DNA of 64,000 bases from an uncultured Elusimicrobia bacterium (GTDB lineage Bacteria > Elusimicrobiota > Elusimicrobia > 2-02-FULL-39-32), in NCBI GenBank assembly GCA_964523525.1, contig CAZFYO010000003.1, positions 92,911 to 156,910 of the forward strand, read 5' to 3'. The position numbers and the translations under genes were made by a program. Shown here piece after piece: positions 12,346 through 64,000 of the stretch. Every line of letters starts with the position of its first letter. The stretch's first letter is position 1. Below the pieces are notes generated by a model that was given only the letters and a program-made list of their open reading frames with translations, had not been told where the DNA came from and did not search any database.

Positions 12346-12358
12346 GAAGGGATACCAC

Positions 12359-13753: not shown

Positions 13754-13757
13754 CCGC

Positions 13758-14492: not shown

Positions 14493-14501
14493 AAGGGTGA
14501 T

Positions 14502-15233: not shown

Positions 15234-15255
15234 TCGTTACGGAGGCACTAAGAAC

Positions 15256-15801
15256 ATGAAAAACATTTTGATCGCTCTCGCCGTTATCGCGCTGGCCGCC
15301 GGCGGATATTACATTTACAGGAACAAAAGCCTCGGTAACGTGGGCGTGAAGCGCGGCGTGGAGTCCATGGCGCAGGGCGATTTCAGCAAGATGGGCAAAG
15401 CGCCGGATTTTTCCGTGACGGATCTGGACGGAAAAACGGTGACGCTCGCCGACCTGAAAGGTAAGGTCGTGGTGTTGAACTTCTGGGCCACCTGGTGCCC
15501 GCCCTGCCGCGAAGAAATTCCCGCGCTGATCGCGCTGCATGAAAAAAACAAAGCCAGGGGGTTGGTGGTGCTGGGCGTTTCCATGGACGAGGGCGGCGTC
15601 GCCGAAGTGAAAGAGTTTGTCGCAAAAAATAAGATGACCTATCCCGTGGCAATGGCGAGCAGCACGATTGCCGACGATTACGGCGGGGTGCGCGCGATCC
15701 CGACGACGTTTATCATCAACCGCGACGGCGCCATCATCGAGAAGATCGTGGGCGACCGCTCGCTCGAACAGTTTGAAAAATCGGTGCAACCCTCGCTGTA
15801 A
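15256..15801 (+). CDS. Thiol-disulfide oxidoreductase, TlpA/ResA-like thioredoxin-fold protein (membrane-anchored)
   Basis: N-terminal anchor helix plus thioredoxin active site WCPPC ([15 protein letters not shown]). Confidence 0.8.
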
Positions 15802-15827
15802 CGGAGAGTTGTAATCGAGATTTAACC

Positions 15828-21898: not shown

Positions 21899-23367
21899 TG
21901 AGCATGGACCAGCGTCCGGTACTGGTGTTCGGCGGGTCGGGATACATCGGCTCGCGGCTGGTCTTGAGCCTCCTGCAACGGCGCTTTCTCGTGCGCGCCA
22001 CTTCCCGCGACATGGCGCGTCTGCGCAAGCGGCCCTGGTCGGCCTATCCCGGGCTGCAGCGCGTCGAAGCCGACGTTTTCGACGACGATTCTCTAAAGAA
22101 AGCCTGCGAAGGCGCCGTCGTGGCCTTCTACTTCGCGCAATGTTCCGACCGCGGATACTGGAATTTTCCCAAACTGAACCGGCAGGCGGCGGAACGTTTT
22201 CTTAAAGCCGCCGAGGATGCCGGCGTCGAACGGATCATTTATCTTGGCGGTCTGGGCGAATCGGAGAGCGTTTCAAGCCGCCTGCTCAAATCCCGCCTGG
22301 AAGTCGAACAGATCCTAAAGTCGGGCAAAATCCCCGTCACGGTTTTTCGCGCCGGGCTCATCCTGGGCTCCGGCAACCTCGCGTTTGAAATCCTTCGGCA
22401 CCTGACGGACCGATGGCCGCTGTTCGCCGATACCGGCTGGATGAAAACCGACTGCCAGCCGGTTTCGGTGCGCGACGTGGTCGAATGCCTGGCGCGTTCC
22501 CTGGAAACTCCGGGCGCGGTCGGCCAGAGTTTCGACGTGGGCGGCAAGGAAGTCCTTCCCTACGAGCGGTTCCTGCAGATATACGCGGAAGAAGCGGGTC
22601 TGCGCCGTCGCGCCATCCTTCCGTTCCGCTTTCTCGGATCGTGGTTGGGCGCCCGCTGGATCGATTTCGGCACGCCTTTGAATGGCAGCCAGGCGCTTCC
22701 GGTTCTGGAATCGATGAAGGAACGCGCGCTCTGCCGCGACACCAAAATCAACGACGTGATTCCCTTTGAATACGCGGGTCCGCGCGACGCGATCAAGACG
22801 ATCCTCTACGAAACCGTCGAGATTCTCGAACGCACCCTGGCCGCGGACGCCCTGCCTCTGGAATGGAGCATGAAAGGCGATCCCGAGGGGTCGGGCGGGA
22901 CCGTGTTCCGCTTCGCGGATTCCTCCGTGATCGCGGCCCTGCCCGAAGACGCCTGGCGCGTTCTGTCGCGCATGGGTGGGCGGACGGGCTGGTATCACGC
23001 AGACTGGTTCTGGACGCTGAGGGGATTTATGGACCGACTTTTGGGCGGGAAAGGAATGACGCCCGGGCGCAAGAGCGATATTCAGTTGAAAACCGGCGAG
23101 CCGATGGACTGCTGGCGGATCCAAATCGCAGAACCGCTGCGCCGGTTGTTGCTGCTTTCGGAGCTGAAAATGCCGGGCCGCTGTTACTGGGATTTCCGGA
23201 TCGAGGCCGTCGATTCCGAGAAAGTACGGCTGTCCCAGGAAATGATCTTCATTCCGCGAGGCCTGCCGGGTTTCATCTTCTGGCATGCGTTCAAGAAAGT
23301 TCGCCGCCATGTATTCGACGGCGCGGCTGTGGCGATTGCCAAACGCGTCAGCCTGAAAATTATTTAA
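21898..23367 (+). CDS. NAD(P)H-binding (NmrA/SDR-a-like) protein fused to a DUF2867-like C-terminal domain
   Basis: Rossmann motif (VLVFGGSGYIGSRL) at the N-terminus. Track ORF extends upstream to 21610 through the AKR gene; the real start is taken as the ATG overlapping the AKR stop. Confidence 0.7.
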   Translation: MSMDQRPVLVFGGSGYIGSRLVLSLLQRRFLVRATSRDMARLRKRPWSAYPGLQRVEADVFDDDSLKKACEGAVVAFYFAQCSDRGYWNFPKLNRQAAERFLKAAEDAGVERIIYLGGLGESESVSSRLLKSRLEVEQILKSGKIPVTVFRAGLILGSGNLAFEILRHLTDRWPLFADTGWMKTDCQPVSVRDVVECLARSLETPGAVGQSFDVGGKEVLPYERFLQIYAEEAGLRRRAILPFRFLGSWLGARWIDFGTPLNGSQALPVLESMKERALCRDTKINDVIPFEYAGPRDAIKTILYETVEILERTLAADALPLEWSMKGDPEGSGGTVFRFADSSVIAALPEDAWRVLSRMGGRTGWYHADWFWTLRGFMDRLLGGKGMTPGRKSDIQLKTGEPMDCWRIQIAEPLRRLLLLSELKMPGRCYWDFRIEAVDSEKVRLSQEMIFIPRGLPGFIFWHAFKKVRRHVFDGAAVAIAKRVSLKII

Positions 23368-24572
23368 GCTCCGTATTCGTTCAGCTCTTCCCTGACAAAC
23401 TTCTTCACGAAACCAATCAGTCCCGTTGCTTCTTCTCCGGCGATGCCTTCCTTCAGGGTGTAAAACCGAAGCTCATCCTTGCGGCGGTCATAAGCGGAAA
23501 TCAATACGGGTTCCTTCACGCAGATGGCTCCAGACGGCCGGTCCATGAGCGGAACCATCAGGAGCGGGATGCCCATTCCGCATATCCGCCGGATCAGGAC
23601 GTGCATGAAACGAACCCGATAGGGCGTCCCGAGCGCCAGTTCTTCGGCGAATTCCGAGAGCAGGCGCTCCGCCGATTCCCGAGAAACACCCACCTCTGCC
23701 ATCAGTTCTTTGAGCTTTCCGGCCTGAACGGATGCCAGCCTGCCCTGCACTGCGGCGGAAAAATCATCATCGTGCAGTATCGCTTCAACCCGGGCTTCGC
23801 ATTCCCGTTTGGACAGGGATTTCAGCGATTCGAAATAGATCCGCTGCGCGAACTCGCGGAATACATACAGGATGCGGGTATTGTGGATGACCCCGCCGCC
23901 CACCGCCGCGCAGACCGGGTTCCCGCTCTTTAATCCGCGCAGTATGTTGAAGATTGCTTCCCGGACGTGCGCTTTGCGGAAGAACAGGTTCTGCGCCCAG
24001 GTCCCGCTGCCGGGCATCCGGTCCACCGCGATGAAACCCGAGTGCACCAATCCCGCATAGAGTCCTCCGAGCCAGCCGGGGAGAGTGTCCAGGGCGAAGG
24101 GATCGATGGCCTGCATGACCATCAGGTATTTATTGGGAAAACATTGGCCCGAGGTTTGGACCGTATGGTAGATCAGGTCTCCAAGCCTGTACGCTTCCTC
24201 GTTGGAAGTTTCGGGGTGGGAGGTGATAAAAAAAACTGCGGGTTCCTTTTTGAGCGAGTCACGGGCGCGGCGGCTGAGCGCGGAGACCTTTTCGATATTT
24301 ACCCGGCTGGCAGCGTCCAGCGCCGGGGGCGTCCGTTTGGATTTCAGATGGGTAAAGTGCGCGGTGAGCGCGTTTGCGAAACGGGCGGGAGCCATCCGCA
24401 GGCAGACCATGCCGATGGCGTAGCCGGCCGCGTTGAAAAGGATCTGGAGGGCTTTTTGGGAACGGCTTAAGGCGAAGGGTTTTTTACCGTAGAGTTTGCG
24501 GTCGAGCGTAATGGCGAGCGCCATGCGGCGCGCCTGGTGCTGGTTCCCGCCTTGAACCGAGCGGGCATCCAT
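23364..24572 (-). CDS. Hypothetical protein (402 aa)
   Basis: Long ORF convergent with the previous gene; no recognisable motif from inspection. Coding call rests on length and co-linear frame only. Confidence 0.5.
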   Translation of the reverse strand: MDARSVQGGNQHQARRMALAITLDRKLYGKKPFALSRSQKALQILFNAAGYAIGMVCLRMAPARFANALTAHFTHLKSKRTPPALDAASRVNIEKVSALSRRARDSLKKEPAVFFITSHPETSNEEAYRLGDLIYHTVQTSGQCFPNKYLMVMQAIDPFALDTLPGWLGGLYAGLVHSGFIAVDRMPGSGTWAQNLFFRKAHVREAIFNILRGLKSGNPVCAAVGGGVIHNTRILYVFREFAQRIYFESLKSLSKRECEARVEAILHDDDFSAAVQGRLASVQAGKLKELMAEVGVSRESAERLLSEFAEELALGTPYRVRFMHVLIRRICGMGIPLLMVPLMDRPSGAICVKEPVLISAYDRRKDELRFYTLKEGIAGEEATGLIGFVKKFVREELNEYGA

Positions 24573-38580: not shown

Positions 38581-41226
38581 TCAGATTTTCTCGAACGCGT
38601 TCTTCCCGATCCACCCGCGCACGCCGGCTTTGGGGATGCCGATCTCGGTCCATTCCGCGTCGTCGCGCTCGTTTAAAATCAGGACGCGGCGGCCTTCTGG
38701 AACGGTGAAGCCGACGCGGAACCTCTGGCCGGGGCCGGAGCGCACTTCCGCGCTTTGCTGGGTGATCACGGCTTCGGTTTGAACCTGTTCGCGGTAAACC
38801 CGCCCGATCCACCAGGCGCCGATCATTATGAAAAACGCCAGCGCCAGAAAAGCCCTGGCGCGGAAGAGCGAGTTTCCGGAAAATAAAATCAAAGTCCAGT
38901 AGATGCAAAGTCCCCAGAATGACATGAGATAGAGGATCGAAAGCTGGTTCAAATTGAGGATGTGAGCCGCGCGATAAAGCATGCGAGTCAAAAACGATTC
39001 CGGCTCGAAGGTTTCGCCAGTTTGAACGCCGACGAGCTGGAGATTGCTTTTTAGATCGGCGTCTGCCGGCTTCATGCGCCGCGCTCTTAACCAATGGGCG
39101 ATGGCCTTTCCGTTCATCCCCAATTTCTGATAGGTGTTGCCCAAATTGTATTCGACGGCAAAGTTTGGTCCGGTTTCCATCGCAAGCGATTCGTAAAGCG
39201 CCCGGGCATTTTCGAATTGGCCGGATTGATAATAATTGTTAGCTTCTTTGAAGGCATCGGCGGGGCTTTGCGCAGAGTTTTGTGATTGCGCGATTGTTGC
39301 ACCTGCTGCAATCAGCAACGGGATGAAAAACGGAAGCAGTATTGCCGCAAGCCGGTTAGATTTTTTCTTATCGCCTCCCTTCGCGACGGACTTCATGCTT
39401 TTTCGCAGTTCGGAGTCGATTTCTTCGATCAAATTTCGCGCTTCGCCCAGCAAACGGTCCGCGTCCTGTGTGCGGAATTGGGCTGGCGCGTAGCTGGCGA
39501 GCTCAAATTCGCTCCAGATTTTCTGCAGGCGCGATTTAAGCGTGGCCGCGGTTCCCGGGATTGCTGCGTGAGCTTCCAGAAACGCCGCAACGCTTTTTGA
39601 AGAGAGCGATGTTTCGCGCGACAGCATTTTATCGGCAAAATAGTCCTGAAACGCCTGGAAAATCCGGCCCGTTGCGTCTGCATCCTGCGTCCGGATCGAC
39701 TTAACCGCCGCATTCCATTTCCCGAGCGCCCCGCTCGCGCGTCTCCGCTCCGGATCCCGCGCGATCCAGGCCAATCTCACCCGGCGCCCGATGCCCGCCA
39801 GCAGTCCGAGCGCCGGCAGGAGGTGCAGAATTAAAAACAGCGGCGTTTTGTTCAGCCATCGGAAAGGTTTCAGCTCGCCTTCCTGCTTGATGTAGCTGAT
39901 CTCGCGGCTGACATTGGCGATCTGCGGCGCCATCGATCCGGGCCCGATCGCAAAGGTCTGCGATTTGCCCGGCGCCACTTCAATGGACAGCGCCTGCGTG
40001 GTCAGCGTCTTGTAGGATTTTCCGGGCAGATTAAAATAGCTGAATTTAATCGGCGCGATGTTGTGCGTGCCCGAAGTCTGCGGCACGAGCACGATCTTGT
40101 AAACCTTTGATCCCTCAACAAACCCCTTGGACTTCTCGATGTTCAGAGAACTCGCGGTATCGTATTTGCGGAAGCCGTCGAACTCGGGGAAAACAGGATC
40201 GCCCAAAGCCTTGATGTTGCCCTTGCCGCTGATCGTGAGCGTCAGGGTCAAGGGTTCGCCGACGGACGCTTTGCGTTTGTCGGCCATGATCGCAACGTTG
40301 AATTCGCCGACGCCGCCCGAAAATCCGTCCGGCTTTCCGGAGGGAAGGGGAACCGCGGTTAATTTGGCGGGATCGGACTTCAGCATATACTCCCGCGCGC
40401 CGCCGCCGAAAAACTGCTGGAAAATATCTTCCTGCGATCCGCTGAAATCCTGCACCGCGATTTTCAGCTGCGCGGGAGAAAGCGTTAAAGCGCCGTCGCG
40501 CGCGGGAAAAAGCGCGGTTTTGATTTCGGTGACATTATAAGGAACGCCGCCCACGCTTTCCGTAAAATTGCGCGGCGGCGGAAGGTCTTCGGTCAAAAAC
40601 CCGGAAGTGTCGGGCGGCTGGTAGTTTGGATTTGCGACCATGCGAACGCGGTAATAAAAACGGAACGCCATCGTGACCTGCTCATTGACGTACGCTTTCG
40701 GTTTGTCCAGGGATAGTTTCACGAACGCTCCAGGCGCCTGGCGGTTTCCCTGCGCGGCATTCCCCTGCGCTCCACCGGCTGCGGGAGCGGGCGCAGCCTG
40801 ACCCGCGGGCACGACTTCGATCGCGATGGGTTGAGACTGGGCCGTTTTGCCGTCCAACGTCGCGCTGAAAGGCCCGATCGTGAATTTGCCCAGGCTCTTC
40901 GGGGAAAGCATATAGGTGAAGTTCACTGACGAAGACATTTTTCCGTTTACGAATGACACATTTTGCGCCTGTCCGGAGGGGTAGACGGAAAATGCGGAAA
41001 GGTCGGGCATCTGCGGCTGGGGCATGCTCGCCGCGTCTCCCGCGATGGTCACGAGCAGCCGGACGGAATCGTTCAGAGCGACCTGCGTCTTGTCGGCGCT
41101 CGCCGATACCGTGAGATCCGCGGAAGCGCGCGCGGTCAGCGCGCAGGCGAGCAGAGCGGATGCGCAGGCCGCGCTAAAAATTTTTCCGAATGCGCGTTGG
41201 TTCAATTTACCAGTCTTCGTCATCAT
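38581..41226 (-). CDS. BatD-like oxygen-tolerance family protein fused to TPR and a C-terminal SH3-like domain
   Basis: 881 aa: signal peptide, BatD-like repeated beta-rich region, TM helix, TPR-like segment (ANNYYQSGQFENARALYESLA…), further TM helices and a C-terminal SH3b-like tail; last gene of the MoxR-DUF58-VWA operon. Confidence 0.7.
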   Translation of the reverse strand: MMTKTGKLNQRAFGKIFSAACASALLACALTARASADLTVSASADKTQVALNDSVRLLVTIAGDAASMPQPQMPDLSAFSVYPSGQAQNVSFVNGKMSSSVNFTYMLSPKSLGKFTIGPFSATLDGKTAQSQPIAIEVVPAGQAAPAPAAGGAQGNAAQGNRQAPGAFVKLSLDKPKAYVNEQVTMAFRFYYRVRMVANPNYQPPDTSGFLTEDLPPPRNFTESVGGVPYNVTEIKTALFPARDGALTLSPAQLKIAVQDFSGSQEDIFQQFFGGGAREYMLKSDPAKLTAVPLPSGKPDGFSGGVGEFNVAIMADKRKASVGEPLTLTLTISGKGNIKALGDPVFPEFDGFRKYDTASSLNIEKSKGFVEGSKVYKIVLVPQTSGTHNIAPIKFSYFNLPGKSYKTLTTQALSIEVAPGKSQTFAIGPGSMAPQIANVSREISYIKQEGELKPFRWLNKTPLFLILHLLPALGLLAGIGRRVRLAWIARDPERRRASGALGKWNAAVKSIRTQDADATGRIFQAFQDYFADKMLSRETSLSSKSVAAFLEAHAAIPGTAATLKSRLQKIWSEFELASYAPAQFRTQDADRLLGEARNLIEEIDSELRKSMKSVAKGGDKKKSNRLAAILLPFFIPLLIAAGATIAQSQNSAQSPADAFKEANNYYQSGQFENARALYESLAMETGPNFAVEYNLGNTYQKLGMNGKAIAHWLRARRMKPADADLKSNLQLVGVQTGETFEPESFLTRMLYRAAHILNLNQLSILYLMSFWGLCIYWTLILFSGNSLFRARAFLALAFFIMIGAWWIGRVYREQVQTEAVITQQSAEVRSGPGQRFRVGFTVPEGRRVLILNERDDAEWTEIGIPKAGVRGWIGKNAFEKI

Positions 41227-51184: not shown

Positions 51185-51231
51185 AAAAGAGAAAGGCCTG
51201 ATCGCTAACGCGATTACGGCCTTTCTCTTTT
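51185..51231. terminator. Bidirectional intrinsic-terminator-like hairpin between the NmrA-like gene and aceK
   Basis: 14-bp stem (AAAAGAGAAAGGCC / GGCCTTTCTCTTTT) with inner ATCGC/GCGAT stem; U-rich 3' flank on both strands; the aceK stop codon lies in the loop. Confidence 0.5.
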
Positions 51232-52974
51232 GAGGCGGGACGGTTCCTTGTAGGGGAGTATTTCCGCGATTTCGCCGGCTGCGAGGCGCTTCTGGAGGTC
51301 CTGCCAGTAGCGCACCGTGAAGAGGTCGCCGTGGAGCGGGTCGAAGACCTTGCGCATCCTCGGGTCGAGTCCGATGAACGTCCTGAACTCCTGGGGAAAG
51401 ATGTCGGCATCGCCCACGTAGAACCAGGGTTCGCTTTCCAGCTCCTCGCTTTCGTCCCGCGCCGCCGGGACCTCGCGGATATTGCAGTCCGTCAGCAGGC
51501 ATAGCTCATCGTAGTCGTAAAAGACCACCCGTTCGTTGCGGGTCACGCCGAAATTCTTCAGCAAAATGTCGCCCGGAAAGATGTTGGCCTTGGCCATGTC
51601 CTTGATGGCGCTCCCAAAATCCACCGCCGCATCCCGCGCCAGCTCTTCCGGCGCTTCCTTCAAGTAAATGTTGAGCGGCACGACGCGGCGCTCCGTATAG
51701 AGATGGCGGATGATCACGGTGTCGCCGGAAATCGAGACGGATTTGGCGGCCTGTTGAGTGAGCTCCTGCAGAAGCTCTTCAGTGAAGCGGCTCTTATCGA
51801 ACTCCAAATGTTCAAATTCTTGCGCATCCACAAGGCGCCCGGCGCGGTCGTGCTGGAACACGAGGTGGTACTTGGCCAATACCTGCTGGCGCGACGTGCG
51901 TTTTGTGTAACTGAATTTGTCTTTAATGATTTTGAAAACTACGTCATAAGATGGCAGCTCGAACACGGTCATCACCATGCCCTTTTCGCCCGGGGAGATG
52001 CGGAATTTATCTTTTGATTCCTGAAGGTGGCGGTAGAGGTCGCGGTAGAGCTCGGTTTTTCCGTGCTTGTTGAATCCGATGGAAATGTAGAGCTCGGCTT
52101 TGGGCTTTTGCGGCATTATAGACTGCAGGAAATCGACCAGCTCCCGGGGCTTTTTGACCTTCACGTGAAAATAGGAGCGCGTGAAGCTGAATACGATGCT
52201 GACTTCGGAATCATTGAGCAAAACCGCGTCCACCAGGATCTGGCCCGCAGGGTTGCGGAGCGCCAACACCAGCGGCAGTTCGCCTTTGGCGGCGCGGATT
52301 TTACCGACGATAAATGCGCCGTTGCCGCGATAAAAGACGGGCTTGATCACGTCGATCTGTTCGAACTTTGCCGAGCCGAAACGGGATTGGAGCTGCTGTT
52401 CAATGCGCCGCGCGCACAGTTCCGCGTCTCCGCCGATATCTTCGAATGGCGCGTTGAATTCGTAGCGTTTCAGAAGCTCTATCAAAAGGTTCGGCAGGGG
52501 CCCGTTGCTGGGATAGGAACGGTAAATGGGTTTTTCGCTCTGGATCGGCGGCGTATCGAGCTCGGAGTCGAGATACTCCGCGCCGGGCTCGGTGCCAATC
52601 ACCACCATGACCTTGCGCAGGGTGGAGTTGTAAAACGTTTTGGCCAGTTCGATATCCTGCCGCGCCGCTACGAGAGCGGTAAAATTCATTTTAGCCTGCG
52701 ACCAGAGGCGGCTGTCGTTGTGTCCGCTGCCGACCAGCTCCTTGACCTTGGGGATCAGCTGGTTGATGATCTTGGTATAGAGGTCGAGGCGCTCGATGGC
52801 GTCGCGCTGCGCGCCGGTCCAGTCGCACTTCTCGAAACGGGTGCGGGCCCGGGAGGTGATCTCCGTAAATTTTTCCTGATAGATGTTGAACGCTTCGAGG
52901 ATGAGCGCGGCGCAGCCGGCGGCGGCGGCCGCGCGGGCGGCGGGGTCGGAGGAGGAGGACGGTTCGCGGCTCAT
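51214..52974 (-). CDS. aceK: Isocitrate dehydrogenase kinase/phosphatase
   Basis: AceK-family similarity over 586 aa (…NIYQEKF…, kinase-like C-terminal region); divergent from aceB. Coordinates are taken from the ORF track; my own base indexing disagreed by 1 nt near 52.92 kb. Confidence 0.85.
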   Translation of the reverse strand: MSREPSSSSDPAARAAAAAGCAALILEAFNIYQEKFTEITSRARTRFEKCDWTGAQRDAIERLDLYTKIINQLIPKVKELVGSGHNDSRLWSQAKMNFTALVAARQDIELAKTFYNSTLRKVMVVIGTEPGAEYLDSELDTPPIQSEKPIYRSYPSNGPLPNLLIELLKRYEFNAPFEDIGGDAELCARRIEQQLQSRFGSAKFEQIDVIKPVFYRGNGAFIVGKIRAAKGELPLVLALRNPAGQILVDAVLLNDSEVSIVFSFTRSYFHVKVKKPRELVDFLQSIMPQKPKAELYISIGFNKHGKTELYRDLYRHLQESKDKFRISPGEKGMVMTVFELPSYDVVFKIIKDKFSYTKRTSRQQVLAKYHLVFQHDRAGRLVDAQEFEHLEFDKSRFTEELLQELTQQAAKSVSISGDTVIIRHLYTERRVVPLNIYLKEAPEELARDAAVDFGSAIKDMAKANIFPGDILLKNFGVTRNERVVFYDYDELCLLTDCNIREVPAARDESEELESEPWFYVGDADIFPQEFRTFIGLDPRMRKVFDPLHGDLFTVRYWQDLQKRLAAGEIAEILPYKEPSRLKRERP

Positions 52975-53130: not shown

Positions 53131-54732
53131 ATGCCAAACGACCCCTATTCCGCCCTCGGAGTCCGGTTCACGGAACCGGTCGCGCCGGACCAGCAAAGCA
53201 TCCTTTCGGAGGCCGCGGTCTCCTTTTTAGCCAAACTCGTCCGCGAATTCGGGCCAAGGCGCGCGGAGCTGCTGCGTAAACGCACCGAACGGCAGATGCG
53301 GATTGACGACGGCCTGAGGCCTTCATTTCTGCTGGAAACCCACGGCGTGAGGGAAGGAAACTGGACCTGCGCTCCCATCCCGAAGGATTTGATGGACCGC
53401 CGGGTTGAGATCACCGGTCCCACCGACCGCAAGATGATCATCAACGCGCTCAATTGCGGCGCCAACGTCTTCATGGCGGACTTTGAGGACTCGAACGCTC
53501 CCACCTGGAAGAACATGATCCAGGGCCAGATCAACCTGCGCGACGCGGTCCGCGGCAAAATCGATTTTACCAGCCCCGAGGGCAAGGAATATAAGCTTAA
53601 ACCCAAAACCGCGACCCTGATGGTCCGGCCGCGCGGCTGGCACCTCGAAGAAAAGCACGTGCTTGTCGACGGAAAACCGGTCTCGGCTTCACTTTTTGAT
53701 TTTGCGGTCTTCTTCTTCCACAACGCGCAGGCGCTCATCGATAAAGGCACCGGCCCTTACTTTTATCTGCCCAAAATGGAGAGCCATCTGGAAGCGCGGC
53801 TCTGGAACGACGTATTTTTGCGCGCTCAGGACGAGTTGAAGATTCCGCGCGGCACGATCCGCGCGACCGTGTTGATCGAAACGATCCTGGCGGCCTTCGA
53901 GATGGACGAAATCCTCTATGAGCTGCGCGACCATTCCGCCGGGCTCAACTGCGGGCGATGGGACTACATCTTCAGCTTCATCAAGAAGTTCTGCGCCTAT
54001 CCCGATAATATATTCCCCGACCGCGCCCAGGTCGGCATGACCACCCATTTCCTCCGTTCCTATTCCAAACTGCTCATTCAGACCTGCCACCGGCGCGGCA
54101 TCCACGCGATGGGCGGCATGGCGGCGCAGATTCCCATTAAAAACAATCCCGCGGCCAACGACGCGGCCATGGCCAAGGTGCGGGCCGACAAGGAACGCGA
54201 AGTCACCGACGGCCATGACGGCACCTGGGTGGCGCATCCCGACCTCGTGGGCATCGCCAAAGAGATTTTTGACAAACATATGAAGGGCCCGCATCAAATT
54301 GATAAAAAAATCACCGATCTGAAGGTGACGGCCGAGGATTTATTGATGGTTCCCAAGGGCGATATCACCGAAGCAGGGCTGCGCACCAACATCGACGTGG
54401 GTGTGGCGTATCTCGAAGCCTGGCTGCGCGGACAGGGCTGCGTTCCCATCTACAATTTGATGGAAGACGCCGCGACCTCCGAGATTTCTCGGGCGCAGGT
54501 CTGGCAGTGGATCCATCACCGGGCCAAAATGACCGACGGGCGGATGGTGACCGCCGAGCTGTACCGTTCGCTGCTGAAGGAAGTCATTGAAGCGGTGCGC
54601 TCGCATCTGGGCCAGGAAAAATTTGAGCAGAGCAAATTCGCCTTGGCCAGCCTTCTTTTCGAAAAGATGGTGACGGCCGAACACTTCCCGCAGTTTCTGA
54701 CGCTGGAAGCCTATGGCAAACTCGAGGGATAA
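53131..54732 (+). CDS. aceB: Malate synthase A
   Basis: Malate synthase A family similarity across 533 aa (…[22 protein letters not shown]…[40 protein letters not shown]…). Confidence 0.9.
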
Positions 54733-54736
54733 CTCC

Positions 54737-56035
54737 ATGAACGAATCACAGCGGATCGCGCAGGACTGGAAAAGAAATCCCCGTTGGAAAGGAATCGTTC
54801 GCAATTATTCGCCTGCCGATGTACTGCGTTTGCGCGGGTCCATGAAGATTGAGCATACGCTCGCGCGGCGCGGAGCGGAAAAATTTTGGAAGCTGCTGCA
54901 TTCGGAGCCCTACATTCACGCTTTGGGCGCCATGACGGGCAACCAGGCCGTCGAGATGGTGCAGGCGGGGCTGAAAGCGATCTATTTGAGCGGCTGGCAG
55001 GTTGCCGCCGACGCCAACAATACGGGGCAGATGTATCCCGACCAGAGTTTATATGCCGTGAGCTCGGTGCCCGAGAAGGTGCAGGCGATCAACCGCGCGT
55101 TGCAGCGCGCCGATCAGGTTTGGCACCTCGAGCGGAAGTCCAAGATCGACTGGTTTGCGCCCATTGTGGCCGATGCCGAGGCTGGGTTTGGCGGGGCGTT
55201 GAATGCCTACGAGCTCATGAAGGCGATGATCGAAGCGGGCGCCGCCGCGGTTCACTTTGAAGACCAGCTCGCCAGCGAAAAAAAGTGCGGACACATGGGC
55301 GGCAAAGTCCTCGTGCCCGCGCAGGAGTTTATTCGCAAACTCGAGGCGGCGCGCCTCGCTTCCGACGTGCTCGGGGTCCCGACTTTGATCGTGGCGCGCA
55401 CGGATGCCGATGGAGCCAAGCTTTTAACCAGCGATATCGACGAGCGCGACCAGGAATTCATGACCGGCGAACGGACCGCGGAAGGGTTTTACCGCATCAA
55501 GGCCGGCGTGGACTGCGCCATCGCGCGCGGCGTCGCCTACGCGCCCTACGCGGACCTGGTCTGGTGCGAAACCTCCAAGCCCGATCTGCATGACGCCAAA
55601 AAATTCGCGGAAGGCGTGCTCAAAAAGTATCCCCGCAAGCTGCTGGCCTACAACTGTTCGCCTTCCTTCAACTGGAAATTGAACCTGAGCCCGTCGCAAA
55701 TCGCAAAATTCCAACAGGAAATCGGCCGGATGGGTTATAAATTCCAGTTTGTGACGCTCGCGGGCTTCCACGTGCTGAACGCGGGCATGTTTGAGCTGGC
55801 CTCCGGCTACAAAAAGGCCGGCATGGCCGCCTACTCCAAATTCCAGGAAAAAGAATTCGAGATGGAAAAGAAACAGGGATTTGCCGCCGTCAAACATCAG
55901 AGTTTCGTCGGCGCGGGCTATTTCGATGAGATTCAAAACGTACTGACCGGCGGCCAATCGTCCACAAAGGCGCTCAAAGACTCCACCGAGGAAGACCAGT
56001 TCAAGCCGGGTCAGAAGAAAGGCCGGCGCAAGTAA
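54737..56035 (+). CDS. aceA: Isocitrate lyase
   Basis: Isocitrate lyase active-site region (KKCGHMGGK) and family similarity; start at ATG 54737, 5 nt after the aceB stop. Confidence 0.9.
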
Positions 56036-57169: not shown

Positions 57170-57197
57170 TGGCACGCAAAATGAAGGTGAAATCTTG

Positions 57198-58292
57198 ATG
57201 GCGCGCGAAATCCGGCCCGCTCTGAGAACGGGCGTCAGCGTCAAAGCCCAGCTGATCGCCCGGCTGCGCTTCAGCCACGTCCTCACGCTTTCCGAGAAGG
57301 AATTTGCCCGGATGATCAGCGACATCGAGAATGATCCGCTTTTCCAGAAATTTCTATACCCCAAAGATTCCGGACCCAAGGCCATTTTCAAGCGGCGCGT
57401 CCCGCACCAGCGCCTGTCCCCCGCCTTCTACGAAGCGAAGGACGAGATCAGCGCCGGCGCGGAAGGCGTGGACGTTGAGAATATCCTGGAGCAGCACCGG
57501 GGAGTGATCGATTTGATCCGCAAAATCGGCCAGGAGTCCTTTGAAAAGCATTTCCTCTACAAGGAGGGGACCGAATCCGCCGCTTCCATCGCCGAGAAGT
57601 GCGGGGTTTTCCCGGAGGACGTGATGAGGGTTCAGGCGGCGGTCACCCAGCTTTCCGTGCATTCGGAGTTTTTCAATCCGACCACACTGCCGGCCGAAAC
57701 GGGCCTGCGCTACACCCTGATCGCCCGGATCGACCCCGATGAACAGGGCTCGTTCTGGATCTCGTTCACGTCGCCGCACCTGGCGGCGGGGCGTTACGTC
57801 ATCAATCCGGAGCGCGTGGACGCGCTCAAAAAAGATTTGGCCGCCTCCGAAAGAAAAGCGGTCACGAACCTGATTCAGAAGCTGGAGCTCATCAACCTGC
57901 GGCAGGACACCCTGCACAAGATGCTGCAGGAAGTCCTGGTCCGGCAGAAAGGCTATCTGAGCTCCAACGACGCGTCGCGCCGCCTGCCGCTTTCCCAGCG
58001 CGACATGGCCGCCCACCTCGGCGTTGCCGCCTCCACGGTTTGCCGGGCGCTCTACGGAAAAAGCGTGCTCGCTCCCTGGGGCCGGGAAATGCCGCTCAAG
58101 GATTTCTTCGTCAACAAGAAAAACGCCGCCGAGGAGTGGGTCCGGCAGATCCTCGAGGAAATGCCCGAGGAAAAAAGGGACCAGTTGAGCGACAATGATT
58201 TGCGCGGCCTCCTCGCCCAGCGTTTTCGGTGCAAGGCGTCCCGCAGGTCCGTCAATCTCTATCGCCGCGCGGTTGAACAAAAATCAAAGTAG
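57198..58292 (+). CDS. rpoN: Compact sigma-54-like factor (RpoN family), about 365 aa
   Basis: Region-I-like N-terminus (VLTLSEKEFARMISDIENDPLFQK), sigma-54 HTH (LPLSQRDMAAHLGVAASTVCRAL…LKDFF) and RpoN-box-like C-terminus (SRRSVNLYRRA). Shorter than typical RpoN. Confidence 0.65.
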   Translation: MAREIRPALRTGVSVKAQLIARLRFSHVLTLSEKEFARMISDIENDPLFQKFLYPKDSGPKAIFKRRVPHQRLSPAFYEAKDEISAGAEGVDVENILEQHRGVIDLIRKIGQESFEKHFLYKEGTESAASIAEKCGVFPEDVMRVQAAVTQLSVHSEFFNPTTLPAETGLRYTLIARIDPDEQGSFWISFTSPHLAAGRYVINPERVDALKKDLAASERKAVTNLIQKLELINLRQDTLHKMLQEVLVRQKGYLSSNDASRRLPLSQRDMAAHLGVAASTVCRALYGKSVLAPWGREMPLKDFFVNKKNAAEEWVRQILEEMPEEKRDQLSDNDLRGLLAQRFRCKASRRSVNLYRRAVEQKSK

Positions 58293-58466
58293 TTTCTCCG
58301 ACGGAAAAGTGCCTCCCGCGGCCCCAAATTGTTACACATTATTTACATTAACTTCAGGTCTAATTTAACTCCCGACTGATATACTTTTGGCTCTGACGCA
58401 GAGCTTAAATAAGGAAAGGAGAACCTCCTGAAAGAGGCCAGCCTCGGGAAAAACCGTCCAACCGCC

Positions 58467-61400
58467 GTGAATCGGGGCCGCAAAGCGGTCGCCTGCGCTC
58501 TCGTGCTGTCCCTTTTACAGTCCGTGCTGCTCGCCCCGGCGGTTCAGGCGGGGTTGTGGCAGGACCGCCGCGAAGCGGCGAAGTCGCTTCCCTTGCTGGC
58601 GCAGCTGCCGGCGGACCTGGCCCCTATGGGTCCGTCGAACTGGCAGATGGACGCGCCAGCCAGCCCGCTCGCTTCGAGCCTGCAGAATTTCGCCGCTCCT
58701 TCCTGGCTCCGAAACCTTCCCCTCCAATACGCCAGTCTGAGGCGTTTGTCATTCCCGCCCGGCTGGAACCCTTCCGACCCCATCGTCATCCATATCCAGG
58801 ACGTGCACCAGAACGCCGAGGCGCAGGAGAACATCAGCCTGACGCTGCGTGAGCTGATCCGCGGGGGCCGGTTGAACCTGGTCGCGCTCGAAGGCTCGTT
58901 TGAAACGATGGATTTCAGCCGGTTCCGCTCCTACGAGGACGCGGATTCGGTGCGAAAGGTAACGGACTATCTGCTGCGCGAGGGGAAAATTTCCGGCGCG
59001 GTGCATGCCGCGTTCGCCAGCGAGAAGGCCCCGCCCAAATTTGCCGGCGTCGATGACCGCGAGCACTATTTCGCGCATGTCGATGCATACAAGAATTCGC
59101 GGGGCGCGGCGCAGGAAGTGAAAAAGGCTCTGGCGTCCCAAATGCAGGCGCTGGAAACGGAGAAAGCCGCGAAACTGAACCCCGATCTCAAAGCATTTGA
59201 CGCCGCCGTGCGCGATTTCCGCGCTGAAAAAACGAAGCTGGGCGCTTACGTCCAGTTTTTGACGGCCCGAAGCAAGAAGACCCTTCCCGAGGTCCAGAAA
59301 TTCCTGAAAGCCTTCAAAGCCGAATCGAGCCTCGATTTCGCGCGGGCGGAAAAAGAGCGCGGCGAGATCATCAACAAGCTCGTGAAGAACCTCGGCCGCG
59401 ATCAGGTCAACGGACTTTTGAATGCCAGCCTCTCTTATCGCGTGGGCCGAACGCGCCACGGCGATTTCTACGTCTATCTCCGCGATCTTTGCGCCAAGAA
59501 CGGCGTCGAGTTTGCAAAGTACGCCGCGATGGACGCCTATCTCCAATATGTTTTGTTGTCGGACAGCATCAACGCCGAGAAGCTGCTGCATGAAGTGGAT
59601 TCAATGGAAGCGGCGGGCTATCAGGCGCTCGCCAAAACCCCGCAGGAAACCATCCTGATTAAAAAATCCAAATGGCTTCATCTGGCGGACAAGCTGGTGG
59701 ATTACTCGCTGTCTCCCAAAGAGTGGAAGGAATATCACTCGATGCGGGACTTGGGAGATTCCATGCTGCGCGATCTGGAGCCTTTCGAGGGATTCTTTAA
59801 AGAGGCCCTGATTCGCGATGAGGCGATGGCCGCCAACTTCATCCGCTCCATCGGGACGGATAGGAATGCGGCGGCGGTGCTGGTGACCGGCGGATTCCAT
59901 TCCGAGGGCATTGAAGAGCGTCTGAAACGCAAAGGGATCGCGGTGTTGACGCTGGCACCCAAAATCAGCAAGGTCGAGACGAAAGACGGCGCGGCGTACC
60001 TCAACGTTTTCACGCAGGAAAAAACCCCGCTCGAAAAACTCTTCCAGGGAGAAAAGCTTTTCGTCACTCCGGAAGTGTTTTCACATTCCACGGAATTGTC
60101 TGCTGCGGCCTTTATCGCCCTCTTCAAACGGACAGTTGAGTCAGCCAACGACGCATTCCACCGGCTGAGCGGTTCAAAAGGCGCCGCCTACAATATCATT
60201 TCGGTTGAGCTCACTGAGGGCATCGTCGGTACATTGGAAGGGCCGCAGGGCTCGGAGCGCTTCAAAATCCAGGCCAACGATGAATCCATCGAAAGCGTTC
60301 AATTCATTCCGTTTTCAGGCATGCGCGGCGTCATGGGTCTTTTCCTGGGGAAGGCCAAAGCCATGGGCCTGTACGGCGAAAAATTATGGACGTTTGTCAG
60401 CCGGATCAATTCCGCGCCGATGTCGGTCAAAATGGTGATGGCCGCCGCGGTCGCCCTGCCGCTGTCGTTCCTGTTCAATGAAATGGCGCCCGGACTGGTG
60501 ATGATGGCCACGGTCGGAAGCTCGATGGGGCCCGGCGAGACCGGAAACGAAGCGCGCGCCAAAGTGCTCTGGCACATCGGCTTCGCGCCCGTGCCGAACG
60601 CGCCGGAACGGACCCTTTTTCTGCGAAGCGAAGCGGAGGCCGCCCGCCTCATGCCGGTTCCCCCGGCGGACACGTGGGTCGAAGTCCGTTACCTGGGAGA
60701 GCGGTCCGAATTCCTGCGCATGTCCATGTACCGGCGCGATCCGGGTGAGACCGAGGACCAGTTTTGGGGACGGCACATGCGCGATTCCGAGGAACGGAAA
60801 CTTTTCGACCTGTACCTCACCATCGATCCGTCGTTTTCCGACACGGTCTGGCTGAGTCCGGGCAAGGCGTATCCGGCGCTCCGCGAATTGTTCGGCCCCG
60901 GCGGCTATTCCAGCGAGGCCTGGATACGCGACACGCTCCTGCCCTGGCTGACCGAGCGCGGGTTCGTGGAAGTAAAAGTCGGCCTGCAGGAATCCAGCGA
61001 TAAGCTTTTCAAATCCCTGGGGTTCACGAAATTCGGCGGAGGGACGATGCGAAAAGTCCTGAACGCCAAGTTAAGGCGGCGTTCGGCGCGTTCTCTGACT
61101 CGGGCACCCGCGCCCTGGACGCTCGAAGAGCGGAGGAAGGACGCCATCCTGCGGATATTGAACGGTAGGACGGAGTCGGCCAACATTGTCCAGCTGTACG
61201 CGGAATTCGCGAAGGACCCGGCCTTTGAAGACGCGACCCAATCCGAGTTCGCCGACCTGGTGATGCGGACGCCCGCGATCCTTGACCACCCGATGCTGAG
61301 CCGGTCCCGGAGCGGGGCGTGGCACGTAGGTGATATGGCTCAAATCGTGGCCAAACAGCTGGTGTCCTCAAGCGACCGGCTTGTTTCCAGGTTTACGGCC

Positions 61401-64000
61401 GATTTAGCAGAACCCCTGAGGCAGGTTATTCTCTCGGCCCTTGCGAAATCAAGAGAAGCCGGGAGTGGAGGATATCAGACTTTTATCGATAACTTAACTT
61501 TTGAGGATCGTCCGATAAGCGAAGAAGAATATATGGATATGCTCTATACGTGGTCTGAAAAGTCCACTGTTGAATTTAACAGCGATCTTCAAAAAAGAGT
61601 TGAGGACAGCATTGTCAGGCAATACCAGCGCAATGGGTCAAAAGTAGAGTCGAGGAGAGGGGCTCAGGCGCGAGTATCCGGCAAGGGAAATTATTCGATG
61701 ACGGTTCTGATCAGCCAGCAGGGTTATCCCGCTCTGACATTCAACATTCTCTTGTCCAACAGAAGGAGGTTTTTCGCGGATCCGGACAACCATATTCTCG
61801 CCCAGCATCGTCCTATATCGTTCGGCGCTTATAATTACTTGCTGCTCCTCCAATCAAGGGTTTTTGATCTGGATGACGCGATACTTGATCTTGTTATCAA
61901 GCATGAGATTGAAGAGATGATGGTAAAACACCGGTCCAGGAACCGGATCGGCGCGGCGGAGGCTCACCGCCTTGCGCTTCAATCCTCGGGGGATGAGCGC
62001 TCTGTTGGAAAAGTGCAGGCCGCGCTTCGCGCACAGAATCAAAAAGACGTTTCCGTCCGCAGGGTGCAAAAATTCCTGGGATCCGCGATCGACGAATCCT
62101 TCATCCGGGAAAATGTGGATGCGCTGGAATTGGTGTGCCTGGACGCTGACGACTATCTGGAACTCCTGCCTTCGGATTATTTGGAGGTTAAGAAATATGC
62201 AGCTAACGTCAGTCCGATTCATTTGATGCTGGATTTGATATTTCTAAATTGGAAAGACCCCGCGGAGCCTGCCGAGTTCATCGCGAATTTGCCCCGCATT
62301 CAGCGGCTTTTGGGGAAGGATTGGTTTACGCACAATTGGACCAATCTGGTAACGCAGTACAGCCAGATGGGCGCGGAGCAATTCAATGGAATTTTTGAGC
62401 GTCAGAGGAACGATCCTTGGATCAGGAATAAAAGCCGGGACTGGCTGAGAGAGTATTTTCTGGACATTCCCAATATCCGCCCCATGAAGGAGGAAAAGGA
62501 CATTGAAGCCGTTTTTGAAGGCGGCCTGGAAAACAGCGGATCCGAATTTGACGACTTAAGATCCGCGATCCGGTCCTATCCCGATATATTGACCGAATCC
62601 ATCAAGGCAATTTACAGGGTTCAAGCGGTCGATTTCAGGACGGATGACATCGTTAAGGTAGGGGTCAAAAAAATCGGCGACGGCACCAGCAACGCGGTTT
62701 TCCTGCTGACTGAAATCGTTTTGTCCAATGGCAGGGTGGTTTCCCAATATCCGATCGTCATGAAGGTCAGCAAGGAATCGACCTATGATCTGACCCATCA
62801 GGGAATGCAGCAGATCGTTCAGGCCGCGCGGGAGCTTGCCGCTCAGGATCCTCCGCTGTATCCCAGGATCGGGGGGCAGTGGATTTTTGACTATCTGCAT
62901 GAGTTTTGGATTGTGAGCGAAGAGTTTGTCCCGGGTCCCACGCTTTGGAACGAGATAGCAGGAGTCCGGATGGATCCCGATCTCGGCGATGCCGAAAAGG
63001 AAAGAAGGATCATCGATCTCCTTGCCAGGCAGTTCGACGTGTATCTTCGAGCCTGGAAAACGTGGAACGAACGTTCCGGGGCCCCGCATTGGATCGAAAG
63101 CAAATTTATCGGCGATCCCAATTCTCTTAATATCATCGGAAGAATGATTGTTGACCTGAACTCGCTGCAGGAGTCCATGACACCGGCCGAAATCGTCGAA
63201 CAGATGATACCGGAGGATGTTCTGGCGGATTCGTCTCCACTGTATTCAATATTTGTCCGGCTGGCCCAGGATATCATGGGCGGAGACAGCGGCCGCCAGT
63301 TTCTGTACAGCTCGCACAATCTCAAAATTTTGAGCGCGCTGGAAGAGTATGAGGAATCCGAGGCCGAAAATGACGGCGGCATTGAGCCCGTTAACTCTCT
63401 CGCCTACTGGATCGCCGATCTGGCGCGCTTGAGCCCGTCCAAAGCGAGAGCGGTCGGCCTCGCGGGGCTGGCCGTGGAAATCCCGGCGCTGATCGCGGCC
63501 GGACTGGTGTTGCCGTTCTTCGGCATGGCAGCCTTCCTGGGAGTCTTCGCGGGCGCCCACATCCTCCTGGAAAAAATTTCTGCCGGCCGCCAGAACCGCG
63601 GCCCCCCGACTTTACGCCAGACGGCCGCCCAAATCATCGCGTTCCTTCCGTATCTGCTGATTTCCATCGCAGGAATTTTTTCCGACTCCATTTTAAGTCA
63701 GTATTTCCTTCCCGCTCTCACCGCGGTCTTCGTCCACGCGAAATTTGACCTGCCACTGATCACCCGGCGTTTCCCCAAAGCCGTTTTCAGCCCTGCCGCG
63801 GCCGCCGGGCCTGCGATGCGCCTGTCGGGACAGGGATTGACGGCCGCGCAGCACGTCGTGGTCAACGAAGCGGTCGCAGGATTTTTCAACCGTCCGGTGA
63901 CGGCAAGTGAGCGGCGCATGCTGATCCCAAGAACCCAGGACTACCGCGCTCTGGATCCCACCGGCGCGCTGGCGGCGGAAGGCGTCCGCATCTATGCCCT
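58467..64000 (+). CDS. Giant secreted/membrane multidomain protein, 5' portion (frame open to the window end; more than 1,840 codons in window)
   Basis: Frame 0 has stops at 58377-58379 and 58410-58412 and then none to position 64000 (checked by hand at several coordinates). Not in the track, presumably because no stop lies in the window. Strong SD AAGGAAAGGAGA at 58411-58422; candidate starts CTG 58428 or GTG 58467; signal-peptide-like N-terminus (NRGRKAVACALVLSLLQSVLLAPAVQA). Confidence 0.75.
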   Translation, partial: MNRGRKAVACALVLSLLQSVLLAPAVQAGLWQDRREAAKSLPLLAQLPADLAPMGPSNWQMDAPASPLASSLQNFAAPSWLRNLPLQYASLRRLSFPPGWNPSDPIVIHIQDVHQNAEAQENISLTLRELIRGGRLNLVALEGSFETMDFSRFRSYEDADSVRKVTDYLLREGKISGAVHAAFASEKAPPKFAGVDDREHYFAHVDAYKNSRGAAQEVKKALASQMQALETEKAAKLNPDLKAFDAAVRDFRAEKTKLGAYVQFLTARSKKTLPEVQKFLKAFKAESSLDFARAEKERGEIINKLVKNLGRDQVNGLLNASLSYRVGRTRHGDFYVYLRDLCAKNGVEFAKYAAMDAYLQYVLLSDSINAEKLLHEVDSMEAAGYQALAKTPQETILIKKSKWLHLADKLVDYSLSPKEWKEYHSMRDLGDSMLRDLEPFEGFFKEALIRDEAMAANFIRSIGTDRNAAAVLVTGGFHSEGIEERLKRKGIAVLTLAPKISKVETKDGAAYLNVFTQEKTPLEKLFQGEKLFVTPEVFSHSTELSAAAFIALFKRTVESANDAFHRLSGSKGAAYNIISVELTEGIVGTLEGPQGSERFKIQANDESIESVQFIPFSGMRGVMGLFLGKAKAMGLYGEKLWTFVSRINSAPMSVKMVMAAAVALPLSFLFNEMAPGLVMMATVGSSMGPGETGNEARAKVLWHIGFAPVPNAPERTLFLRSEAEAARLMPVPPADTWVEVRYLGERSEFLRMSMYRRDPGETEDQFWGRHMRDSEERKLFDLYLTIDPSFSDTVWLSPGKAYPALRELFGPGGYSSEAWIRDTLLPWLTERGFVEVKVGLQESSDKLFKSLGFTKFGGGTMRKVLNAKLRRRSARSLTRAPAPWTLEERRKDAILRILNGRTESANIVQLYAEFAKDPAFEDATQSEFADLVMRTPAILDHPMLSRSRSGAWHVGDMAQIVAKQLVSSSDRLVSRFTADLAEPLRQVILSALAKSREAGSGGYQTFIDNLTFEDRPISEEEYMDMLYTWSEKSTVEFNSDLQKRVEDSIVRQYQRNGSKVESRRGAQARVSGKGNYSMTVLISQQGYPALTFNILLSNRRRFFADPDNHILAQHRPISFGAYNYLLLLQSRVFDLDDAILDLVIKHEIEEMMVKHRSRNRIGAAEAHRLALQSSGDERSVGKVQAALRAQNQKDVSVRRVQKFLGSAIDESFIRENVDALELVCLDADDYLELLPSDYLEVKKYAANVSPIHLMLDLIFLNWKDPAEPAEFIANLPRIQRLLGKDWFTHNWTNLVTQYSQMGAEQFNGIFERQRNDPWIRNKSRDWLREYFLDIPNIRPMKEEKDIEAVFEGGLENSGSEFDDLRSAIRSYPDILTESIKAIYRVQAVDFRTDDIVKVGVKKIGDGTSNAVFLLTEIVLSNGRVVSQYPIVMKVSKESTYDLTHQGMQQIVQAARELAAQDPPLYPRIGGQWIFDYLHEFWIVSEEFVPGPTLWNEIAGVRMDPDLGDAEKERRIIDLLARQFDVYLRAWKTWNERSGAPHWIESKFIGDPNSLNIIGRMIVDLNSLQESMTPAEIVEQMIPEDVLADSSPLYSIFVRLAQDIMGGDSGRQFLYSSHNLKILSALEEYEESEAENDGGIEPVNSLAYWIADLARLSPSKARAVGLAGLAVEIPALIAAGLVLPFFGMAAFLGVFAGAHILLEKISAGRQNRGPPTLRQTAAQIIAFLPYLLISIAGIFSDSILSQYFLPALTAVFVHAKFDLPLITRRFPKAVFSPAAAAGPAMRLSGQGLTAAQHVVVNEAVAGFFNRPVTASERRMLIPRTQDYRALDPTGALAAEGVRIYA

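Follow-up and report, generated by a model that had tools for sequence, protein, structure and literature searches.

The window analysed here is a stretch of 64,000 nucleotides from an uncultured Elusimicrobia bacterium (assembly GCA_964523525.1, contig CAZFYO010000003.1, positions 92,911 to 156,910 of the forward strand), and our subject is the giant gene that occupies its right-hand end. An open frame of 1,862 codons runs on the plus strand from 58413 to 63998, off the end of the window, and is the only frame of at least 400 codons open in its region. The features of this gene and of its upstream neighbourhood are listed in Table 1. An original prediction, made from the sequence alone, had held that between about 61400 and 63370 the frame passes through a low-GC mosaic segment, and had suggested that this segment was a horizontally acquired or recombined domain cassette set into a resident gene. 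As described below, a block of foreign composition is present at this place, and we consider it probable that it is an in-frame acquired cassette in a resident, compositionally native giant gene.

Table 1 Features of the giant gene and of its upstream neighbourhood, in window coordinates
Feature	Coordinates	Strand	Remarks
aceK	51214-52974	-	glyoxylate-shunt gene
malate synthase	53131-54732		glyoxylate-shunt gene
isocitrate lyase	54713-56035		glyoxylate-shunt gene
365-aa protein	57195-58292	+	sigma-54 DNA-binding domain alone (PF04552, E 6e-18); directly upstream of giant gene
giant open reading frame	58467-63998	+	>1,844 codons, truncated by window end; likely start GTG 58467
signal-peptide-like / membrane-anchor N-terminus	58467-58556	+	MNRGRKAVACALVLSLLQSVLLAPAVQA/GL; hydrophobicity scan maximum 2.24
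conserved family head	58560-60410	+	TIKI/ChaN/erythromycin-esterase fold with large helical insert; host-like, GC3 0.74
transmembrane-like hydrophobic segment after head	60417-60488	+	members of family carry transmembrane clusters at same place
soluble region, 240 aa	60600-61319	+	host-like, GC3 0.77; no relatives, no family match
compositionally foreign block	61320-63260	+	~645 codons, GC3 0.59, GC ~0.505 (measured on 61400-63370)
first part of block, ~407 aa	61320-62540	+	no detectable relative, no family or fold assignment
second part of block, rare protein-kinase-like-fold domain, ~260 aa	62544-63315	+	three relatives, motif positions, structural searches
putative beta3 Lys (VMK)	62763-62765	+	alignment A2, positional
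catalytic-loop D-x-x-x-x-N (DPNSLN)	63114-63131	+	alignment A2, positional
DFG-like Asp (VDLN)	63153-63155	+	alignment A2, positional
transmembrane cluster, ~3 helices	63444-63698	+	host-like; directly after block; weakly similar to transmembrane clusters of P0029 and P0001

A block of foreign composition within one open frame

As a reference for composition we took 43 plausible genes of the window, with 16,016 codons in all; they have a third-position GC content (GC3) of 0.743 (per-gene standard deviation (sd) 0.037, minimum 0.68) and a codon adaptation index (CAI) of 0.722 (sd 0.043). The segment 61401-63371 has a GC content of 0.505, a GC3 of 0.597 and a CAI of 0.573, which places it outside the host gene-to-gene range (GC3 z = -3.8 to -4.6; CAI 3.5 sd low). 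The remainder of the giant frame is host-like, with GC3 values of 0.74 (58470-60599), 0.77 (60600-61400) and 0.75 (63372-63998). One block is thus singled out within the frame, and a uniform GC3 across it is ruled out. The 1,970-bp window starting at 61401 is the GC minimum of all 64 kb (0.505; mean 0.576, sd 0.018), and the block is also the strongest tetranucleotide outlier of the window (0.367 against 0.212 ± 0.022, z of about 7). The two spot values on which the original prediction was built, GC contents of 0.58 at 59101-59200 and 0.38 at 61501-61600, are exact.

The block also differs in its choice among synonymous codons. AGA and AGG account for 17% and 34% of the arginine codons in the segment against 2.3% and 5.4% in the reference genes; together, they make up 51% of the arginine codons of the block against 7.7%. 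ATA accounts for 16.7% of the isoleucine codons against 4.1%. The four codons named beforehand as rare, AGA, AGG, ATA and TTA, amount to 5.3 per 100 codons in the segment, the first three being enriched as claimed and TTA hardly at all (4.6% versus 3.1%). Low GC could in principle be a by-product of amino-acid composition: isoleucine and asparagine are higher and alanine lower than in the rest of the protein, and GC at second positions (GC2) is 0.36. However, it is third positions and synonymous choice that shift most, with the CAI falling from 0.72 to 0.57 and AGR codons rising from 8% to 51% of arginine codons. These statistics refute an amino-acid origin of the low GC, to which we allow virtually no chance.

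The edges of the block are sharp. A two-change-point likelihood scan of GC3 placed them at 61320 and 63260 with a log-likelihood ratio (LLR) of 24.5, while the highest control values were 13.5, among 24 equal-length blocks cut out of concatenated real genes, and 8.4, among shuffles. A cumulative-sum (CUSUM) statistic, computed on the per-codon log-ratio of P(codon given amino acid, host) to P(codon given amino acid, Omnitrophota locus), returned 61323 and 63252, with a mean log-ratio of 0.067 inside the block, 0.50 before and 0.48 after it (Welch t = -9.6, p = 2e-20). The change in the DNA at the 61320 junction is visible by eye. The coordinates first proposed therefore describe a real block, the true start of which lies about 80 bp earlier and the true end about 110 bp earlier.

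That the frame stays open through the low-GC stretch, as had been noted, is far from trivial: a run of 693 codons would be free of stops by chance with a probability of only ~8e-16, stops number 9-34 in each of the other five frames, and GC by codon position follows the GC1 > GC2 < GC3 order of coding sequence. The frame of the block is therefore coding. These observations also bear on whether the block is a metagenomic assembly chimera, i.e. a fragment of another organism joined into the contig. The window does behave like a metagenome-assembled contig of an uncultured lineage. Yet both junctions keep one frame open over more than 1,860 codons, with the improbable absence of stops just given; host composition is found on both sides of the block within that same frame; a family-typical transmembrane cluster stands right after the block; no junction repeats are present on which an assembler could have switched template; and the same architecture recurs in two independent assemblies (loci L010 and L011, see below). 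We regard a chimera as exceedingly unlikely.

Alternatively, rare codons and low GC might be selected for function, either because slowed translation helps folding or membrane insertion or because the block harbours an internal regulatory element or an antisense gene. Rare-codon clusters do lie between transmembrane clusters, and minus-strand open frames of 122-177 aa lie inside the block. Against this, the shift spans 1.9 kb and affects all synonymous families as well as the tetranucleotide signature, not a few pause sites; the minus-strand open frames have no family match, and the frames in which they lie hold 9-31 stops; no Rfam match is found in the block; and five of the seven other family genes that we profiled (see below) have no such block. 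Selection for a function of this kind is, in our judgement, very unlikely.

Upstream of the composition boundary, by ~150-400 bp, six rare codons (AGG, ATA and TTA) are clustered at 60924-61167 in a region where GC3 is still host-like; they may represent an older, ameliorated part of the same or of an earlier cassette, or may be due to chance. Elsewhere in the window, the 2-kb region of second-lowest GC lies at 30.5-33.2 kb (0.525) and is also the next tetranucleotide outlier (0.275), and the BatD/TPR/SH3 gene of a Bat/MoxR cluster (38581-41226, minus strand) contains 200-codon stretches with a GC3 of 0.58-0.60, the lowest among the reference genes. Both deviations are much weaker than that at 61320-63260.

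Contents of the block and composition of its relatives

No part of the block matches Pfam, NCBIfam, PADLOC, PHROGs or sequences of the PDB. Its first part (61320-62540) gave no match in a word-indexed protein search or in an exhaustive phmmer search of 1.84 billion representative proteins. The lowest-GC3 stretch, 61320-61919 (0.515), lies here, and for its codon usage the Omnitrophota table is a closer match than that of the host. For the second part, the exhaustive search returned three relatives only, P0090 (33% identity), P0091 and P0092, with identities to the block of 22-33% and too few for a tree; the word-indexed search yielded nothing, either for the segment alone or for a four-sequence profile. 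The search with the segment alone that had been suggested as a check thus finds relatives for the last ~260 aa only, and all three lie on contigs of 39-44% GC, two of them (P0090 and P0092) being annotated as Candidatus Omnitrophota.

In the alignment of the domain with these relatives (alignment A2), a Gly-rich stretch followed by "VMK", and the motifs "F-I-x-D-P-N-x-x-N-I" and "V-D-L-D/N", are common to the relatives. On inspection, the Lys at 62763 is invariant, and the Asp at 63114, the Asn at 63129 and the Asp at 63153 are found in the query and in two of the three relatives; P0092 is without the catalytic residues, while the query keeps all of them. The motifs follow one another in the order and at the spacing of the kinase beta3 Lys, the catalytic-loop D-x-x-x-x-N and the DFG Asp, the assignment of residues to motifs being positional. 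The order of secondary-structure elements is also kinase-like, and structural searches return kinase folds. Because the shared motifs sit in kinase order and spacing, we assign 62544-63315 to a kinase-like fold with moderate confidence; from the residues retained, the domain may well be an active kinase. An hhalign comparison of its profile with the APH-containing neighbour of P0090 and with the Pkinase-containing P0070 gave no signal. P0090 itself is encoded on a contig of an Omnitrophota metagenome-assembled genome (MAG; locus L001). A gene call of 11,849 aa precedes it by 4 kb (stretch noted: L001 1-3982), and its neighbours are proteins of 1,230 and 1,233 aa, with epimerase and APH-type kinase domains joined in one of the two.

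The part of P0090 that is homologous to the block has a GC3 of 0.388, near the 0.361 of its own locus, and the kinase-like domain is therefore compositionally at home in that genome, unlike in the window. Elusimicrobia/Elusimicrobiota proteins are the closest relatives of the head of the window gene, and hits to this head were the sole basis on which the analysis placed the host in a phylum. The codon usage of the block is between that of the host and that of Omnitrophota. GC1/GC2/GC3 are 0.561/0.364/0.599 in the block, 0.592/0.411/0.740 in the host and 0.502/0.360/0.361 at the Omnitrophota locus L001, and the host/Omnitrophota log-ratio, ~0.5 outside the block, lies between -0.2 and +0.25 within it, when only 0.2% of host 100-codon windows fall below 0. 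These values fit either a low-GC sequence that has been partly ameliorated or a donor of ~45-52% GC, for a host at 57.5% GC. An Omnitrophota-like donor lineage is the best available guess; the donor may equally have been a low-GC member of the Elusimicrobiota, of which L009 (neighbour GC3 0.34) would be an example. In the alignment with the relatives, Lys stands opposite 5 of the 25 AGR codons and 4 of the 21 CGN codons, and the test of AGR as a relic of Lys codons is uninformative.

A tblastn search against plasmid and phage collections found nothing similar to the block, and no template repeat or paralogous copy of it was found elsewhere in the window at the DNA or protein level. The sole tRNA of the window is 12 kb away from the block. 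A diversity-generating retroelement was considered and ruled out, no template for the block being present anywhere in the window; the variable regions of such elements are typically far smaller than a block of 1.9 kb.

A giant-protein family, with replaced centres in a sibling pair

With the whole visible protein as query, 89 homologues were retrieved, and these align to the first ~560 residues of the window protein alone. The original suggestion of a variable module thus holds at the level of the family. The named homologues at 29-40% identity are proteins of Elusimicrobia/Elusimicrobiota MAGs, and those at 21-25% are from Omnitrophota. Downstream of the shared head, the median fraction of a member that is shared with any other member is 0. 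Precomputed Pfam domains found there include 4-alpha-glucanotransferase, PGK, malate synthase with isocitrate lyase, phosphoglucomutase, hexokinase, glycogen phosphorylase, UDP-glucose dehydrogenase, epimerases, sigma-70 (P0043 and P0044), GNAT, rhomboid, DnaJ, HEAT and WD40, and Pkinase with a cNMP-binding domain. Hydrophobicity scans show that most members have transmembrane-like clusters after the head, recurring between large soluble stretches, and that an N-terminal signal-peptide-like or anchor segment is common to most.

The window protein follows this plan of anchor, head, transmembrane and soluble segments, its hydrophobic segments lying at 58479-58556, 60417-60488 and 63444-63698. 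The start of the gene is ambiguous: an AAGGAG (58416-58421) precedes an in-frame CTG at 58428 by 7 nt, and GTG 58467, the first canonical start, has no obvious ribosome-binding site but gives a textbook signal peptide. In the head, H113, E141, R449, G474 and H477 (numbered from 58470) are invariant in 49 sequences, in keeping with the His-Glu catalytic pair and the GxxH motifs conserved in the TIKI/ChaN/erythromycin-esterase superfamily. Its parallel beta-sheet core is a fold shared with ChaN, Bcr135/136, EreC, RRSP, HopBA1, TraB and PMT. The match of the head to the Pfam ChaN family (PF04187) scores 17.1 bits, below the 27.7 cut-off, and several homologues carry a precomputed PF04187 hit. The literature searched contained no description of such a giant-protein family, nor of PF04187 in such a context, and this family of Elusimicrobiota and Omnitrophota MAGs is apparently undescribed; the published "giant genes" of Omnitrophota (bioRxiv 10.1101/2023.11.21.568195) are a different entity.

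Seven other family genes were profiled for GC3. Two of them, P0017 (L010) and P0029 (L011), contain low-GC3 blocks with LLRs of 43.9 and 54.8, and for these two the nature of the block can be read by direct comparison. The two loci are syntenic, and the genes on either side match at 75-84% nucleotide identity. The two proteins are 67% identical over residues 1-622 and 1-596, respectively, and 70% identical over their last 397 residues, whereas their centres, of 2,004 aa in P0017 and 887 aa in P0029, are unrelated. GC3 in the N-terminal part, the centre and the C-terminal part is 0.62/0.44/0.60 for P0017 and 0.64/0.41/0.58 for P0029, with 0.65 in the neighbouring genes, and the right composition boundary coincides closely with the homology breakpoint (codon 2625 versus 2626 in P0017, 1495 versus 1483 in P0029). 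In this pair, the low-GC3 block marks a central cassette replaced between conserved ends. Material for such exchange is at hand, since part of the P0017 cassette recurs in P0033 at 44% identity and a second paralogue lies 3.5 kb downstream of P0017. The two paralogues on that contig (L010), P0017 at 8326-17397 and P0010 at 20927-24256, have N-terminal domains 44% identical to each other, and the interval holds an AAA_14 gene along with another gene, possibly antitoxin-like on a faint PhdYeFM match. At L007, L008 and L011 (family gene at 6001-11640 in the last), the family gene has a Fic gene beside it.

When the GC3 of family genes was compared with that of their neighbours at loci L004, L005, L006, L007 and L009, the whole gene was found below its neighbours for the four members in higher-GC3 contexts (0.58/0.64, 0.61/0.67, 0.54/0.68 and 0.47/0.65) and above them at low-GC L009 (0.40 versus 0.34). 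Family genes tend to an intermediate composition whatever the host, perhaps because codon selection is weak or because entire genes are often transferred.

The neighbourhood of the window gene has a counterpart within the family. The glyoxylate-shunt genes of Table 1 lie 2.4 kb upstream of the giant gene, and in P0048 (3,074 aa) isocitrate lyase and malate synthase domains are fused inside a giant protein, its malate synthase module being 28% identical to the stand-alone enzyme of the window (E 3e-27). Because the same two enzymes are fused in the one case and neighbours in the other, a link between the family and enzymes of central carbon metabolism is hinted at.

Probable acquisition of the block, and what it resembles

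We infer that the block was acquired as a cassette on the strength of its composition, its codon choice, its edges, the company its relatives keep and the replaced centres of P0017 and P0029. The main rival explanation is that it is native, its low GC3 arising from a local regime in which a unique, fast-evolving cassette with no homologous partner drifts towards AT, having escaped GC-biased gene conversion or codon selection; a change from CGG to AGG is, after all, a single synonymous step. Several observations are as this explanation would have them. AGG (34%) exceeds AGA (17%), the order expected from the decay of host CGG, when low-GC loci use AGA more than AGG; GC1 and GC2 of the block are within the host range; the four members in higher-GC3 contexts have the whole gene below its neighbours in GC3; and in both P0017 and P0029 the unique part is the low-GC centre. 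However, the edges of the block are not graded, the adjoining region 60600-61319 is equally relative-free and yet host-like, and every relative found for the block comes from a low-GC genome, the composition of which the domain shares. In P0017 and P0029, moreover, in-situ divergence cannot have produced centres that are unalignable and differ 2.3-fold in length between flanks ~75-78% identical in DNA. Native drift is in our view an unlikely explanation, if the most serious one.

A number of points weigh against acquisition. Firstly, GC3 is the sole outlier, GC1 and GC2 being inside the host gene-to-gene range (z -0.9 and -1.2), and its excess of arginine over lysine (R 7.2%, K 4.1%) is evidence against the block having come only very recently from a genome of 40% GC. 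Secondly, the identity of the block to its best relative is no more than 33% and is confined to the last third, and since host-like 60600-61319 is relative-free too, lack of relatives does not by itself mean foreign. The kinase-fold model is of low confidence (pLDDT 55.5, TM 0.2-0.3), and the domain is unmatched by Pfam, NCBIfam and a PDB profile search. Thirdly, no close relative of the giant gene, with or without the block, was found in the collections searched, by exact 50-mer searches (GTDB genomes, JGI metagenomes), back-translated pattern scans (genomes, metagenomes, viral contigs) and searches for proteins identical to the isocitrate lyase and malate synthase encoded nearby. Fourthly, five of the seven profiled family genes (P0008, P0014, P0032, P0001 and P0002) have no comparable block, their best segments reaching LLRs of 3.8-12.1. 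Finally, no direct repeats beyond short, chance-level ones, integrase or mobile-element gene were found at the junctions, although such signatures are not required for recombination between homologous flanks. A 21-nt direct repeat of 86% identity (60483-60503, encoding MAPGLVM, and 63492-63512, encoding IAAGLVL) lies in the hydrophobic segments that bracket the soluble module; it is placed where recombination anchors would be expected, and is probably a chance match of codons for similar hydrophobic residues.

Acquisition of the block remains the reading we favour, those of the checks suggested with the original prediction that could be run having all agreed with it, and we propose the following model for it. 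In the giant protein, a signal-peptide-like or anchor segment and a TIKI/ChaN-fold head are followed by soluble modules set between transmembrane clusters; across the family, the head, and the C-terminal end where visible, are conserved, and the central modules would be replaceable cassettes, of which 61,320-63,260 would be one, or the newer part of one. It may have been recombined in, either illegitimately or with conserved segments of the family as anchors, from a more AT-rich gene pool shared with Omnitrophota, and would since have been kept by selection, because its frame is open. The cassette would add ~400 aa of unassigned fold together with the kinase-fold domain, in which the Lys that anchors ATP, the D-x-x-x-x-N loop and the Asp that binds metal are all retained, and to judge from these residues it probably gives the scaffold a phosphotransferase activity. 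Should the head be exported and the one helix at 60417-60488 cross back, that activity would lie on the cytoplasmic side.

Tentatively, one may picture a general system in which giant membrane proteins of Elusimicrobiota and Omnitrophota, built on a TIKI-fold (hydrolase-like) head and conserved ends, draw their central cassettes from a low-GC pool shared between the phyla, with modules ranging from relative-free sequences and rare kinase-like domains up to full central-metabolism enzymes. As a whole, we hold this wider picture to be doubtful. Within it, the head might even act as a protease on the protein itself, setting the modules free or activating them, in which case the proteins would be bacterial "polyprotein" delivery scaffolds.

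The interest of the locus lies mostly in an undescribed family and in an unusually clean record of domain-cassette exchange. A transfer that places one domain inside a resident gene is difficult to detect, since amelioration wipes out its signal; here, the edges can still be read to within ~30 codons, and the sibling pair P0017/P0029 shows the same kind of event by direct comparison. Conserved ends with swapped, cassette-like centres provide a handle on how giant proteins diversify in uncultured phyla such as Elusimicrobiota and Omnitrophota. Two unstudied objects emerge, a TIKI-fold-headed giant membrane family with metabolic-enzyme cargo and a kinase-fold domain with three relatives. If the cassette pool does cross phyla, giant genes of this sort would be useful as markers of physical contact or gene flow between the groups.

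How does the window gene compare with known systems? Within the TIKI superfamily (Tiki, TraB/PrgY, ChaN, erythromycin esterases, RRSP, HopBA1, PMT), its head differs by a ~260-aa helical insertion inside the domain and, unlike other members, is fused to giant, variable, membrane-spanning downstream regions. The block domain has the order of elements and the Lys, D-x-x-x-x-N and Asp positions of the kinase superfamily (aminoglycoside phosphotransferase/choline kinase/Bud32-type and eukaryotic-like), and is unlike its members in that Pfam, NCBIfam, PDB profiles and hhalign all fail to recognise it and in having so few relatives.

The effector arrays of MARTX toxins are reshuffled by recombination. 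One MARTX effector, RRSP, has a TIKI fold (PMC6254334). Polymorphic toxins combine a conserved N-terminal part with diverse downstream domains gained by cassette recombination (PMC3482391). The window family is like both in consisting of large secreted or membrane proteins that join a conserved N-terminal part to recombining, highly diverse downstream domains. It is unlike them in that the TIKI-fold domain is the constant head and not the cargo, in that the variable part is central, between transmembrane clusters, with a conserved C-terminal end in P0017 and P0029, and in that the cargo includes central-metabolism enzyme domains. In addition, the 1,843 aa visible of the window protein gave no Pfam, NCBIfam, PADLOC or PHROGs match to RHS, filamentous-haemagglutinin or RTX repeats, to a cysteine protease or to known toxin domains.

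Flagellin (fliC) and mosaic surface-protein genes have conserved ends and a laterally exchanged hypervariable centre. P0017 and P0029 are alike in their conserved 5' and 3' ends and atypical centre, and, in principle, homologous recombination between such ends could exchange a centre without homology; this is the model we propose for the window gene. The family differs from fliC-type genes in that its cassette is multi-domain, 2-6 kb long, set in a multi-pass membrane protein of 1,100-3,200 aa and able to include enzyme domains; no evidence points to a role in antigenic variation. Taken together, the window gene is closest in its working to the genes with conserved ends and an exchangeable centre and to the polymorphic-toxin/MARTX class, and it is a member of neither.

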